A stretch of DNA of 64,000 nucleotides from Enhygromyxa salina (GCF_002994635.1 NZ_PVNL01000139.1:18055-82054); one strand, 5' to 3'. Counted from the stretch's first letter, positions 35,201-39,183 are shown. The notes: a model not told the origin generated them from the letters alone. Numbers and translations are program-made.

Positions 35201-35266
35201 CTACACGACGTGCAACCGGCGGTCGCGCGACGTCCACGCCAACTTGACGTCTCGTGACCCGCCCGG
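35201..35266. repeat. conserved 66-nt hairpin-prone element, copy 1 (41 nt after the stop of isochorismatase paralog 1)
   Basis: 63/66 identical to 39118..39183. Internal imperfect inverted repeat acgacgtgcaa ... ttgacgtc(t)cgt. Confidence 0.8.
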
Positions 35267-35429
35267 CAGGTCCTGGCGGGTGACGGGGATCTGAAGGCAA
35301 AGCTCGATGGTCCAGAGCGTTGACGTCGCCATGGTCGAACGCCGTCGATTGGCAGGCCCTCTACTCTGGTACCGTGGGCACACTCAACATCCATCACGCG
35401 GCCGCGGCCTCCCTTTGCACGATCTAGAC

Positions 35430-35849
35430 TCACCGGCACACGAGCGTCGAGCCGGGCGGATTGACGACACCGGTTGTCGTCGGCCAAGTGATCCTCTCGC
35501 CTGATTCACCAACCCACTGATTCGAAGCGAAGTCTTGCTCGCAATCGTTCCAGTCGAAGTCGTACTGGTCGGCGTCGAGTTCACAGTCCGCGAGCAGCGC
35601 CTCGTTGAGCTCGGCGATGCGAGACTTCGACTCGTACTCGGACTTTGTCATGCACAGGCAAACGTGACGGGCCTCCCCGATCGCGCGAAGGGTGCCATCC
35701 TCCCAGTGACCGTACGACAACGGCCGTGCGCAGGCTCGCTCACCTTCGTCCGGCACGGCCACGACCGTGTCGTCCTGGCACGCGGCCATGGTCAACGCCA
35801 ACGCGAAGCCAAGCGTCAGGGCACCAAGGTGTATGTGAAGTCGACCCAT
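35430..35849 (-). CDS. hypothetical lipoprotein (lower-GC region)
   Basis: Signal/lipobox LALTMAACQDD. About 58% GC against about 70% background. Confidence 0.4.
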   Translation of the reverse strand: MGRLHIHLGALTLGFALALTMAACQDDTVVAVPDEGERACARPLSYGHWEDGTLRAIGEARHVCLCMTKSEYESKSRIAELNEALLADCELDADQYDFDWNDCEQDFASNQWVGESGERITWPTTTGVVNPPGSTLVCR

Positions 35850-36630
35850 TGTGTTCCTCGTTGGACCCGAACGCGAAGTTCGGTCGCAGTATCATTCTCG
35901 GAGATCGCGTATAGCGCCGCTTCGAGGTCGTCGATCGTGGTGCCATTGACCGATTCGAGCCGATCTCCATCTCGTAGACCCAGCTCTGCCGACAGAGACC
36001 CCGTCGTGACCCCTTGAAACGCGAACCGGCTAGCGGTCGTGTCGTAGACGAGCGTGGTGTCCTCGCCGAGCAGCAGAGACATTCTGCCAACAACATCTGC
36101 GCGAAACCGAGGTCGATGTCACACGTGTTCCCGTCGCAGTCGATGTAGTCGCCTGCGCCGAGAGGGCTGCCAGTATCGGTTTCGGTTTCGGTGTCAGTAT
36201 CGGTTTCGGTTTCGGTGTCAGTTTCAGTATCGGTTTCAGTGCCAGTTCCGCCGCCAGTCTCTCCTCCCCCTTCGTCGCACTCATAAGGGTTTGGATCGGG
36301 GCAGGTTCCACCTGGGGGAGGATTGGCGTACGCACAGTCGCCGACACACTCCCCCAGACCATCCTTAAACGGGTGGCTCAGCACAATGGTCGAAGCGTCC
36401 ATTCCAGAGTCGATAAGCAATTGTGATTCCAACCTGCGGGAACGATCGCGTCGCATGCCTGTCGGGTGGCAAGTTCGATATCGTCGAAGAGTGCGGCGTA
36501 TTGCGGAGCGGGAACCTCGAAATCGATGATCTCCTGCTCTGCAGCATTGAGACACGTGCACCCCGCCGGACCGGGCGCGCTGTGTGACCCAGGCACTGGC
36601 TCGGCCAGTTCCGGTTTTCCCGCCGGCCAC
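35816..36630 (-). pseudogene. possible frameshifted gene: Cys-containing N-terminal part with (TE/TD)n linker, then an out-of-frame PDZ/GspC-like C-terminal domain
   Basis: Frame B (..CVGDCAYANPPPGGTCPDPNPYECDEGGGETGGGTGTETDTETDTETETD..CDIDLGFAQMLLAE) and frame C (MSLLLGEDTTLVYDTTASRFAFQGVTTGSLSAELGLRDGDRLESVNGTTIDDLEA...) abut near 36082. Neither looks complete alone. Confidence 0.3.
36172..36250. repeat. (ggtttcggtgtcagtatc)-type tandem repeat encoding the TETD linker
   Basis: Related to the repeat at 16750..16870. Confidence 0.75.
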
Positions 36631-36812
36631 ATCACGGCGTCGGCCAGGTAGTTACAGTTGTTTTCTCCTGCCGCGACAATTTTGATGCAGTAGTCGGGTA
36701 GCAGGCATCCTGTGGTGGGTGCAAAAATTCCACTAGCGACGCCAATGCCGGCCCCCACAAACGGAGCTGTGAACCATATCCTACCCTGCCGCGTCTCTCT
36801 CAGGTTTCGCAT
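36378..36812 (-). CDS. hypothetical small lipoprotein
   Basis: MRNLRETRQGRIWFTAPFVGAGIGVASGIFAPTTGC signal with lipobox. Cys-containing 110-aa mature part. Low-GC island. Confidence 0.35.
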   Translation of the reverse strand: MRNLRETRQGRIWFTAPFVGAGIGVASGIFAPTTGCLLPDYCIKIVAAGENNCNYLADAVMWPAGKPELAEPVPGSHSAPGPAGCTCLNAAEQEIIDFEVPAPQYAALFDDIELATRQACDAIVPAGWNHNCLSTLEWTLRPLC

Positions 36813-37278
36813 CCTAACACCGTAGTCATCAACCAGATGCGGTGTCAAGCAGATGCGGTGTCAAGCGCATTTTGGAGCCACGTGACCGGCTCCGGCGGGG
36901 ATGCCACTCGTCCTCGACCTCGAGGCGGCGACAGCCCGGCCGCCGCCTTCGACCACCTCGAGGCTCCCGCGATCGAGCGGTTTGGCTTCACCACCCACAC
37001 CCACGACTACTGGGATCAGCAAAAGGGCCCGCTGCATCGCCACCTGCTCGAGATGCTCGAGCGCCCCTGCTTCGCCGCCTGCGCGAGCTGAAGCTCCGGG
37101 CGCTCGGGGACTCGCTGCCCTACATCTCGGGGTTCGAGAAGGTCATCGAGCGACTCCCGGCCACGGTCGAGCGGGTCGATCTGCGCGAGGTCAGGATGCA
37201 GCAGGCACTGCGTCAGGAGCTCGCGGCGAGGCCCAGGGCACGCCCGAGCTGCTGCTGCCCGCGTAGTTGAGCGATCCA

Positions 37279-38148
37279 TCAAGGCCCTTCGAAGCACTCG
37301 ATCAACATCTCGGTGAGCACCCGGACCTTCCGCGAGGAATGCTGCCCCGGCGGACGCACGACATAGACCCCTGCCTGAGGCGGCGGATAGTCCGTCAGCA
37401 CGGGCACGAGCGCGCCGGAGGCCAGGTGCGCCTTGGTGAGGGCGTCGGGCAGGTAGGCGATGCCGAGTCCGGCGACGGCCGCTGCGACCAAGGCGGTGCC
37501 GTTGTCGGCCTTGAAGCGCCCCCGCGGATGGATCGACACGGTCTCGTCCCCGTCCGTCAGCAGCCAGGCCTCGGTGCCCTGCATCAGCGCCTCGTGATCG
37601 ACGAGCTCACACGGCGTCTCGGGCTGGCCGTGCGACGCGATGTAGTCGGGGCTCGCCACGAGCTGGCCGAATAACGGTCCCACGCGCCGGGCGAGGAGGT
37701 TGGAGTTCGGCAGGTAGCCGAACCGGATCGCGCAGTCGAAGCCTTCCGCGATGAGGTCGACGAAGCGGTCGCTGTAGGACGTGTCCAGGTGCAGCCGCGG
37801 ATGCCGTCGCGCCATGTCGGCGATCACCCGGGCCAGGTGGGTCGGTCCGAACGAGAGCGGGGCGGCGATGCGCAGGCGCCCGCGTAGGTCTCCCTCGGGC
37901 CGGATGGTCTCCTCGGCGATGTCGAGCTCGGCGCAGACCCTCGCGGCATGCTCGCTAAACAGCGCGCCAGCCTCGGTGAGCGCCGCTCCGCGCGTGCTCC
38001 GGGCGAGGAGCTGGACGCCCAGCTCGGCCTCCAACCGGGCGAGCCGCCGGCTGACGATCGACTTCGAGATGCCGAGGCGACGCGCCGCCGCGGAGATACC
38101 CTTCGCATCGGCCACTTCCACGAAGGTCCTGAGTTCGTCGATGTCCAA
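37279..38148 (-). CDS. LysR-family transcriptional regulator (TTG start proposed)
   Basis: N-terminal helix-turn-helix DIDELRTFVEVADAKGISAAARRLGISKSIVSRRLARLEAELG plus a LysR substrate-binding domain. Divergent from isochorismatase paralog 2. Confidence 0.8.
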   Translation of the reverse strand: MDIDELRTFVEVADAKGISAAARRLGISKSIVSRRLARLEAELGVQLLARSTRGAALTEAGALFSEHAARVCAELDIAEETIRPEGDLRGRLRIAAPLSFGPTHLARVIADMARRHPRLHLDTSYSDRFVDLIAEGFDCAIRFGYLPNSNLLARRVGPLFGQLVASPDYIASHGQPETPCELVDHEALMQGTEAWLLTDGDETVSIHPRGRFKADNGTALVAAAVAGLGIAYLPDALTKAHLASGALVPVLTDYPPPQAGVYVVRPPGQHSSRKVRVLTEMLIECFEGP

Positions 38149-38229
38149 GCCGGCGTTCCACCTTCTGCGACACACCTTCGCAGTTTGGGACACTACCGTA
38201 TCGTATCGGGGACCGGCAATCCTCCTTCC

Positions 38230-38883
38230 ATGAAGATTCGCAACGGTCTCGACTCCCTCCTTCGACCCGAAGACTCGGTGTTGGTCCTGATTGACCACCA
38301 GCCCTACCAGCTCGCCAACCTCAACAGCCACGACCCCCAGGCCGTGGTCAACAACTCGGTGGCGCTGGCGAAGTCCGCCAAGGCCTTCGGCGTCCCGACG
38401 ATCCTCACCAGCGTCGTCGCCGAGCGCGGCGGCCTCATCTTCCCGCAGATCACCAAGGTCTTTCCCGATCAGGAGGTCATCGATCGAACCTTCATCAACA
38501 CCTGGGAGGACGCCCGGGTCGTCGACGCGGTCCGTGCGACGGGGCGCAAGCAGCTGATCATCGCCGGTCTATGGACGGAGATCTGCGTGGCGATGCCAGT
38601 CATCCAGGCGCTCGGCGAGGGGTGGGACGTGACGGTGATTACCGACGCCTCCGGCGCGATCTCGGTGGAGGCCCACGAGGTCGCCATCCAGCGGATGATC
38701 GCGGCGGGGGCCAACATGATGACCTGGCTGGCCCTGGCGGCGGAGTGGCAGCGCGACTGGGCGCGGACCGAGCACGCCGGCGAGCTGACCGAGGTGCTCA
38801 TCGACCACCTCGCCGGCAGCGGGATCGCGTTTTTGTGGGAGCAGCAGCTGCTCCACACGCCGGTGCCGCCCGAGGCTGGCTGA
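38230..38883 (+). CDS. isochorismatase-family cysteine hydrolase (paralog 2)
   Basis: ATG at 38230. VLVLIDHQPYQL ... IIAGLWTEICV. Confidence 0.75.
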   Translation: MKIRNGLDSLLRPEDSVLVLIDHQPYQLANLNSHDPQAVVNNSVALAKSAKAFGVPTILTSVVAERGGLIFPQITKVFPDQEVIDRTFINTWEDARVVDAVRATGRKQLIIAGLWTEICVAMPVIQALGEGWDVTVITDASGAISVEAHEVAIQRMIAAGANMMTWLALAAEWQRDWARTEHAGELTEVLIDHLAGSGIAFLWEQQLLHTPVPPEAG

Positions 38884-39117
38884 TCGCACGGCTCGAACGG
38901 CTCGCCGCTCGAGCACCCGTCCCGGCGGGCTGCTCGAGCGGCGCGCTTCAGCGCGAGAAGAAGCCCGAGACGCTCGCGCGGACGTTGTGCCCCGCCGCCG
39001 GGCTGACCCGGGCGATCATGTGCGGCGCCCCGGCGAGCAGGGCCAGGCGGTTGGGCCGGGGCACTCGAACGAAGCCAGCCCCGTGCACCCGAAGCACGGC
39101 TCGACGATCACAACAAA

Positions 39118-39183
39118 CTACACGACGTGCAACCGGCGGTCGCGCGACGTCCACACCAACTTGACGTCTGGTGACCCACCCGG
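39118..39183. repeat. conserved 66-nt hairpin-prone element, copy 2 (about 235 nt after the stop of isochorismatase paralog 2)
   Basis: See copy 1. Confidence 0.8.

Follow-up and report, generated by a model that had tools for sequence, protein, structure and literature searches.

A stretch of 64,000 nucleotides (nt) of DNA from the marine myxobacterium Enhygromyxa salina (GCF_002994635.1, NZ_PVNL01000139.1:18055-82054), assigned here to strain SWB005, referred to as the window and having a G+C content of 68.6%, contains two nearly identical copies of a short hairpin-forming element, each of which sits between two converging genes. The reading that we favour, and to which we would give about an even chance of being correct, is that this element is a low-copy hairpin repeat restricted to E. 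salina and located in hairpin-rich convergent-gene spacers, and that the near-identity of its copies comes from a recent local transfer of sequence. Recency, and not purifying selection, would account for this near-identity, because an orthologous copy in the strain DSM 15201 has diverged at a near-neutral rate.

The two copies were recognized in the initial annotation as 63 of 66 positions identical between 35201-35266 and 39118-39183, a figure that is confirmed here. They lie in direct orientation at a spacing of 3917 bp, and their three differences fall at element positions 38, 53 and 61. The onset of similarity is located slightly before 35201, at about 35192-35199, and the high-identity tract, or core, covers 35199-35266 in copy 1 and 39116-39183 in copy 2, with 4 differences in 68 nt. 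Beyond the core, identity is only about 50% up to 35288 (9 differences in 19 nt), which gives a homologous unit of about 90 nt (35199-35288 and 39116-39205), and homology of the flanks outside this unit does not rise above that of shuffled sequences. When a 37-nt sub-word was searched with up to 3 mismatches, only these two sites were found in the window, whereas shuffles predict 0, and no third copy was detected in the 64 kb by nhmmer --max, blastn-short, 3-mismatch sub-patterns or a covariance model. The SWB005 genome is a 9.0-Mb draft obtained from MiSeq 2x300 reads (PMC5920174), and an assembly artefact is unlikely because 300-nt reads span a 67-nt repeat. The repeat is genuine, and its occurrence is not random.

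Both copies lie downstream of genes coding for isochorismatase-family hydrolases. The first of them, iso1 (34480-35160, plus strand), encodes a YcaC-like protein that is 100% identical to PRP94792 of E. salina SWB005, 89% identical to its DSM 15201 ortholog and 70-73% identical to proteobacterial YcaC-like proteins. The second, iso2 (38230-38883, plus strand), belongs to the PRP94797 cluster, and its product is 84-90% identical to alphaproteobacterial hydrolases. It had been stated from the start that these two genes are clearly diverged, and indeed the proteins are only 37% identical; judged by these identities, they are ancient paralogs of different subfamilies. For this very reason they provide no yardstick for the age of the repeat, and the argument that a non-coding element conserved beyond its adjacent genes must be functional does not hold, as the yardstick is inadequate and the ortholog shows near-neutral divergence.

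The orthologous locus is found on contig 237 of DSM 15201 (JMCC02000237), where the element also follows the iso1 ortholog. Positions 1786-2586 of this contig align to window positions 34367-35169 at 89.6%, a stretch that includes iso1 together with 113 nt of its promoter region, and positions 2755-2838 align to 35171-35254 at 86.9%; outside these blocks the contig and the window are unrelated. Between the iso1 stop codon and the element, DSM 15201 carries a 168-nt insertion (2587-2754) that is absent from SWB005 and has 56-nt terminal inverted repeats (86% complementary), so that it looks like a miniature inverted-repeat transposable element (MITE). At the alignable element positions, 7 of 54 (13%) differ between the ortholog and copy 1, while 17% of the four-fold synonymous sites of iso1 differ between SWB005 and DSM 15201; on these two rates the divergence of the ortholog is near-neutral. 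Six of the seven changes fall in the hairpin H2 described below and break it, and homology to the ortholog stops at 35254, with hairpin H3 being absent there.

The divergence between the two cores of the window (4.5%) is below the 13% that separates copy 1 from its ortholog. As the core evolves in a roughly neutral way between strains and yet differs so little between copies, the copies would have exchanged sequence after the split of the strains. Two positions, 38 and 53, are informative, and at both of them the ortholog has the base of copy 1, whereas that of copy 2 is derived. This agreement, together with the partnerless hairpin arm retained in copy 2 (see below), points to the iso1 site as the source. 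The iso1 block itself (34367-35254, comprising promoter region, gene and 94 nt downstream) is common to SWB005 and DSM 15201 in unrelated contexts, no iso1 ortholog of SWB007 appears among the top matches, and iso1 looks like an accessory, relocated gene.

Three successive hairpins, H1, H2 and H3, are predicted at copy 1 in its context, and the minus strand adds a fourth, H4. H1 is formed on the plus strand by the pairing of 35181-35192 with 35218-35229, a 12-bp G+C-rich stem of -28 kcal/mol that begins 21 nt past the iso1 stop codon. Its 5' arm is located outside the repeat, so the complete H1 exists at copy 1 only and copy 2 carries the 3' arm alone, without a partner. All 12 pairs of H1 are kept in the DSM 15201 ortholog, with a compensatory change from G-C to C-G and a G-U pair that is possible only on the plus strand. 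H1 is the structure with evidence of maintenance, and it is a probable 3'-end or terminator hairpin of iso1. H2 (35229-35251 in copy 1) has the form GACGTC-N11-GACGTC and is repeated in copy 2 (39146-39168) with the exception of one loop base; apart from both copies, this motif occurs at only one other site of the window, with 0.2 expected.

H3 bridges the end of the core and the flank that is only about 50% identical between copies. In copy 1 (35253-35285) it is a 12-bp minus-strand hairpin with two symmetric internal mismatches and predicted energies of -19.0 kcal/mol on the minus and -20.8 on the plus strand, whereas in copy 2 (39170-39202) the same geometry yields -18.4 on the minus and only -8.3 on the plus strand. 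Compared with copy 1, copy 2 has one pair flipped from C-G to G-C and three minus-strand G-U pairs, which on the plus strand turn into A.C mismatches and leave 87.5% of the stem paired. All 5 loop positions differ between the copies, but the stem geometry and both internal mismatches are retained. H4 forms on the minus strand only, at 35199-35217 in copy 1 (8 bp including 3 G-U pairs; -7.1 versus -1.2 kcal/mol on the plus strand) and at 39116-39134 in copy 2 (8 bp, 4 G-U pairs; -3.1 versus 0). Full pairing of the hairpins common to both copies is reached only on the minus strand, which is antisense to iso1 and iso2; there, H3, H2 and H4 are 100% paired in both copies, with one flipped pair and four pairs that differ by G-U. 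When five random substitutions were placed in the H3 stem, all pairs were kept on either strand in 1-2.6% of the simulations.

The folding energy of the whole unit gives z-scores of -2.5 to +0.5 against shuffled sequences, never clearly better than them, and its minus strand stays between -0.5 and +0.5. The core alone folds on the plus strand into a long imperfect hairpin (z -2.5 and -1.6). When DNA parameters are used, copy 2 has a better fold than H3. The imperfect dyad proposed earlier (acgacgtgcaa...ttgacgtctcgt) does not correspond to the predicted pairing, as other stems fold instead: GACGTC-N11-GACGTC plus CCGGCGGTCGCG/CGTGACC.GCC.CGG when the core is taken alone, or the three separate hairpins in context. 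The stems are trailed by AGACGUC or GCGCGAC, and none is followed by a U-tract. A consensus terminator scan of 34300-39700 gave no site at either copy, nor did a scan for the sigma-70 promoter consensus. Rfam 15 yielded no match in the window at the gathering threshold and none at E<=10 over either copy, its only weak matches falling on the separate hairpin of iso2, and no tRNA or tmRNA is located at the element.

Searches for further copies were also negative. In the 96 kb examined with nhmmer and a covariance model (the window, contig 237 of DSM 15201, 12.9 kb of contig PVNK01000166 from the SWB005 assembly GCA_002994615.1, and metagenome relatives), no copy was found other than the ortholog. 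The covariance model of the minus-strand structure recovered the two copies, the ortholog (46.8 bits) and one weak match at 63108-63201 (28.9 bits), which was judged spurious, as it lies inside a coding open reading frame (ORF) and shares only generic G+C-rich stems. A wobble-tolerant 29-nt pattern that matches both copies had 0 hits in genome and metagenome contig collections, which lack the window's own contig. The 20-mer ACGACGTGCAACCGGCGGTC occurs at 7 loci of the GTDB representative genomes, of which only contig 237 of DSM 15201 extends past the 20-mer; at 7 loci of the JGI metagenomes, all of them by chance (flank identity of about 25-37%); and at 0 loci of the IMG/VR viral contigs. A plasmid collection had no match to the unit by blastn or to the minus-strand peptide by tblastn. 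The region of PVNK01000166 that is paralogous to 39475-41864 (78% nt identity) does not contain a copy of the repeat, and a proteobacterial contig with an iso1 homolog lacks the element. No such repeats are mentioned in the SWB005/SWB007 genome note (PMC5920174), and a literature search on repetitive extragenic palindromes in myxobacteria gave a single paper, which is unrelated. The initial annotation had regarded the absence of copies outside this duplication as evidence against its proposal, and the only outside copy encountered is the orthologous one in DSM 15201.

What we infer from these observations concerns the mechanism of copying, its direction and any role in termination. The original would be the copy behind iso1, which occupies the same place in DSM 15201 and overlaps H1 with its 5' part. 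A patch of about 68 nt would then have passed between this site and the second one, 3.9 kb away, after the divergence of SWB005 and DSM 15201, either by conversion of a short tract between two pre-existing hairpin regions or by a templated partial duplication, so that copy 2 would be a partial copy of the iso1 3' region. Short-tract conversion, templated patch duplication and quasi-palindrome template switching resemble what is seen here in leaving sharp, near-identical tracts of tens of nucleotides between dissimilar local sequences, and template-switch processes can flip paired bases in a palindrome arm, as in H3. Classical conversion, however, needs flanking homology, which is absent on one side of the element and limited to the hairpin level on the other. 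If the element has any function, this could be the formation by H3 (about -19 kcal/mol) of a stem-loop at the 3' end of the minus-strand transcripts coming from the lipoprotein gene (35430-35849, minus strand), which converges on iso1, and from the hypothetical-protein gene (39484-40824, minus strand), which converges on iso2. Copy 1 is located about 140 nt downstream of the stop codon of the former and copy 2 about 277 nt downstream of that of the latter, and H3 would act as a terminator or insulator hairpin between convergent genes. Most likely, the element is not a regulator or a small RNA of the isochorismatase genes.

Several points weigh against this proposal. The divergence between copies is very uneven, with 4 differences in the 68 nt of the core and 9 in the 19 nt of the outer arm and loop of H3, roughly a tenfold disparity, and yet H3 retains its full set of 12 minus-strand pairs in spite of those 9 changes. 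Such uneven divergence with intact pairing is not accounted for by one recent duplication of the entire 90-nt unit. Moreover, the estimate of copy number relies on exact-word scans, which are blind to copies whose divergence exceeds about 10%, of the source genome only the window and 12.9 kb of PVNK01000166 were covered, and the comparison involves three sequences only, with which selection is also compatible. The preservation of H3 can be read in three ways: as an older pair of hairpins later overlaid by a conversion tract, as quasi-palindrome template-switch repair that re-perfects one arm, or as selection on the minus-strand hairpin. The first two are jointly ranked as the most likely, with odds that we consider roughly balanced, and selection comes second, at a clear remove in probability.

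The selective explanation proposes that the element is a structural RNA of the minus strand, either a three-hairpin 3' untranslated region (UTR), a terminator or insulator, or a 3'-UTR-derived small RNA of the converging genes, kept by purifying selection in SWB005 and surviving in DSM 15201 as a truncated, decaying relic. It is favoured by the full minus-strand pairing of H3, H2 and H4 in both copies, with the compensatory flip and the four copy-specific G-U pairs, by the poorer plus strand (H3 87.5% paired and H4 not formed), and by the probability of only about 0.01-0.03 of keeping all H3 pairs under random substitution; in addition, the H3 loop is changed at 5 of 5 positions with the stem geometry kept, and the borders of the unit coincide with the feet of H3 and H4. 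Nevertheless, the minus strand folds no better than shuffles, the copies have no upstream sequence or promoter in common, no stem is followed by a U-tract, and the ortholog lacks H3 and has H2 broken. The SWB005 region paralogous to the 39484-41864 genes is devoid of the element, under DNA parameters copy 2 favours another fold over H3, and the pairing argument compares two sequences only, with a flipped pair that can also be obtained by quasi-palindrome template switching. On balance, this explanation is rather improbable, although it is the strongest of the alternatives. In its general appearance the element is indeed close to the terminator hairpins found between convergent genes of high-G+C genomes, as it has G+C-rich stems of -19 to -28 kcal/mol between converging genes, with H1 kept across strains by compensatory change and H3 kept across copies. 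Canonical intrinsic terminators, in contrast, have the U-tract that these stems lack, and it is unusual for the terminators of unrelated genes to have a near-identical 68-nt sequence in common.

A mobile, non-autonomous family of hairpins, similar to repetitive extragenic palindromes (REPs) and bacterial interspersed mosaic elements (BIMEs) or to MITEs, and inserting in intergenic DNA, has also been considered. REPs and BIMEs are repetitive extragenic palindromes of proteobacteria that are mobilised by the transposases known as RAYT or TnpA-REP. The element shares with them its short, imperfect extragenic palindromes between convergent genes, the strand-specific G-U/G-T pairs that fit one strand, its species-specific sequence and its restriction to one lineage, and the MITE-like 168-nt insertion that adjoins it in DSM 15201 implies that such elements are active in the genus. 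However, REPs and BIMEs occur in tens to hundreds of copies, whereas only 2 were seen in the 64-kb window, none turned up in a further 32 kb of Enhygromyxa-related DNA, and exact-word scans gave no additional ones. They carry GT[A/G]G 5' of the palindrome, whereas the minus-strand GTAG of the element is located inside the 3' arm of H4, and the RAYT gene that accompanies them, usually with REPs on its flanks, has no counterpart among the window ORFs scanned with Pfam, which revealed no Y1, transposase or integrase gene among the neighbours either. With MITEs such as Correia/NEMIS or the 168-nt element of DSM 15201, it has in common its small size and its non-coding, intergenic and hairpin-forming nature, but it lacks terminal inverted repeats and target-site duplications and its copy number is low. 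Finally, copy 1 merges into H1, the 3' hairpin of iso1 itself, and a second strain has it at the orthologous position; at this site, therefore, it is no insertion. Such a family is quite unlikely.

Just as unlikely is the idea that the repeat is a coding relic of the minus strand, namely the last 22 or so codons and the stop of one repeat of a six-repeat, propeller-like family (LAWTG-x-D-R-R-L-N-V), left by a duplicated gene fragment. The very first bases of the repeat, CTA at 35201 and 39118, read TAG on the minus strand, and in each copy this frame stays open over 60-66 codons, with a G+C content at third codon positions of 0.80-0.81; it encodes …PGGS[R/P]DVKL[A/V]WTSRDRRLHVV*, and the flank retains P-V-[T/A]-R in that frame. 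When the 60-aa ORF was compared by phmmer to 1.84 billion proteins, three of the five matches belonged to one metagenomic family (E 9e-5 to 9e-4), and a hidden Markov model (HMM) of its repeat placed the three element sequences at the top of a set of 1898 six-frame fragments (E 6e-6 for copy 1, 1.5e-4 for copy 2 and 5e-3 for the ortholog, with 0.9 for the next best). The proteins of this LAWTG[ST]DRRLN[VL] family are about 280-320 aa long and contain 5-6 repeats of about 44 aa each; neither Pfam nor PDB gave a match to them, and a beta-propeller fold is probable. Its similarity to the element spans 16-17 residues only, with E-values inflated by the summing of one short motif over six target repeats, and the HMM comparison is circular, as the family was picked by its similarity to the query. 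The upstream parts of the two ORFs are mutually unrelated and resemble out-of-frame G+C-rich sequence, of the three differences in the core a single one is synonymous, nothing in its taxonomy links the family to Enhygromyxa, and the peptide found nothing by tblastn in plasmids.

Other sharp patches of this kind exist. The window contains a second direct repeat, 15244-15310 and 17428-17494, of 67 nt at 97% identity, with sharp edges and flanks at random identity. The copy at 17428-17494 falls in frame within the C-terminal coding portion of a gene for a DUF2961 protein (17348-19099, minus strand), and the one at 15244-15310 extends out of frame into the 3' end of the ORF 15193-15957 (minus strand). 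In the SWB005 contig PVNK01000166, a patch pair of 111 nt and 96% identity (4836-4946 and 6671-6781 of the 12.9-kb segment) corresponds to the last 36 codons of a gene. By these comparisons, short, sharp, near-identical patches are recurrent in this genome, which favours a mutational origin of the hairpin repeat. On the same contig, a two-gene unit paralogous to window positions 39475-41864 (78% nt identity) is tandemly duplicated at 9551-12872 of the 12.9-kb segment, as 1.78-kb units that are 92% identical. A bolder proposal is that E. salina recurrently copies patches of about 67 nt to sites 2-4 kb away in direct orientation, and that the hairpin repeat is a footprint of this activity. It is based on the two independent pairs of the window (66-68 nt and 67 nt, both with sharp edges), one of which overwrites a gene's 3' end out of frame, and must be regarded as very unlikely. 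If it were true, such a fixed length would suggest that copying proceeds through a discrete intermediate, for instance a short piece of single-stranded DNA or cDNA, of the size of multicopy single-stranded DNA, used in break repair, and not through ordinary gene conversion.

The functional options offered by the initial annotation have fared unequally: a REP-like element or a 3'-end hairpin is still viable, but those linked to the isochorismatase genes are scarcely so, as copy 2 lies outside the iso2 unit and the pairing is antisense. The proposal that the element acts on the plus strand and is tied to these genes, as a 3'-UTR stabiliser, a small RNA or the binding site of a regulator such as LysR, would explain why each copy is found downstream of a same-strand isochorismatase-family gene, why the core alone folds on the plus strand, and why the GACGTC-N11-GACGTC motif, so rare elsewhere in the window, is present at both copies. 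Against it, the stem substitutions of copy 2 at positions 53 and 61 both break the plus-strand hairpin, and iso1 homologs occur elsewhere without the element. Furthermore, a strong plus-strand hairpin of iso2 itself (38901-38946), directly after its stop codon and conserved in metagenome relatives, separates the gene from copy 2, which starts 235 nt past that stop. As the copies are 3.9 kb apart and few intergenic gaps exist in this span, landing behind a neighbouring paralog is not a rare coincidence. The tie is thus scarcely credible, and the link to the isochorismatases is probably incidental, arising by proximity.

The context of iso2 bears on the same question. A gene for a LysR-type regulator (37279-38148, minus strand) is divergent from iso2, and metagenome contigs share the block 37152-39012, which comprises LysR, iso2 and the iso2 hairpin, at 95% nt identity. 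Past 39012 the similarity ends, and the metagenome contigs continue with the 3' end of an IS3-like transposase gene; copy 2 begins 104 nt beyond this breakpoint and is therefore not part of the conserved iso2 unit. The block has entirely different flanks in the metagenome contigs, and several assemblies break at the 3' end of the IS3-like transposase gene. The presence of this 95% identical block in different flanks, together with the 84-90% identity of iso2 to alphaproteobacterial hydrolases, suggests that LysR-iso2 is a horizontally moving two-gene unit. The divergent promoter region between the two genes contains a perfect dyad, CTGCGA-N7-TCGCAG (38165-38183), which is likely the LysR-type regulator box. 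As this dyad is unrelated to the element, the element was rejected as a LysR operator. A 3' UTR shared by the two converging minus-strand genes as paralogs was likewise discarded, since they show no mutual similarity.

The remaining candidates can be dismissed briefly: an integron attC or att site (no integrase nearby, no tRNA or tmRNA, a segment between copies that is not a cassette, and a 20-mer absent from viral contigs), the template and variable repeats of a diversity-generating retroelement (one of the 3 differences is C/G, and no reverse transcriptase domain occurs in the neighbours scanned), and a retron or an IS200/605 end (no recombinase or reverse transcriptase nearby and an unsuitable substitution pattern).

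The segment between the copies contains the divergent LysR-iso2 pair, the lipoprotein gene and a frameshifted gene, and Pfam scans of 30 neighbouring ORFs detected no integrase, transposase or reverse transcriptase. At 35816-36848 (minus strand), three consecutive ORF pieces in different frames, with a 156-aa N-terminal part, a middle of Thr/Glu/Asp repeats and a PDZ-like C-terminal part of 88 aa, correspond to a frameshifted gene or pseudogene, in a region whose G+C content is 0.58-0.61 compared with 0.69 for the window. Farther away, 30159-33242 (plus strand) encodes a 1027-aa protein with a Major Vault Protein shoulder (E 1e-26) and vault repeat domains, a bacterial homolog of that protein. 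A cluster resembling those for ribosomally synthesized and post-translationally modified peptides occupies 42169-55695 (minus strand), with an HlyD-family protein, a C39-peptidase ABC exporter, an ATP-grasp protein, two JmjC/cupin proteins and a YcaO cyclodehydratase. Several large ORFs harbor long Cys-rich and Asp-Gly or Thr-Glu hexanucleotide repeats (3054-3800, 13114-13215, 16600-16870, 19133-19453 and 33422-33503) and resemble thrombospondin-type-3 or DUF4215-like repeat proteins.

As a general lesson, a near-identical short non-coding tract beside diverged paralogs is to be taken as a sign of recent transfer, and not of constraint, unless orthologs confirm the latter. The significance of the element is low, as a lineage-restricted intergenic hairpin repeat in two copies with no regulatory evidence. 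Its value would be raised if patches of about 67 nt proved to reflect a specific copying mechanism, and if the element belonged to a genome-wide family with covarying stems, marine myxobacteria would have their first described REP-like or structured-RNA family.

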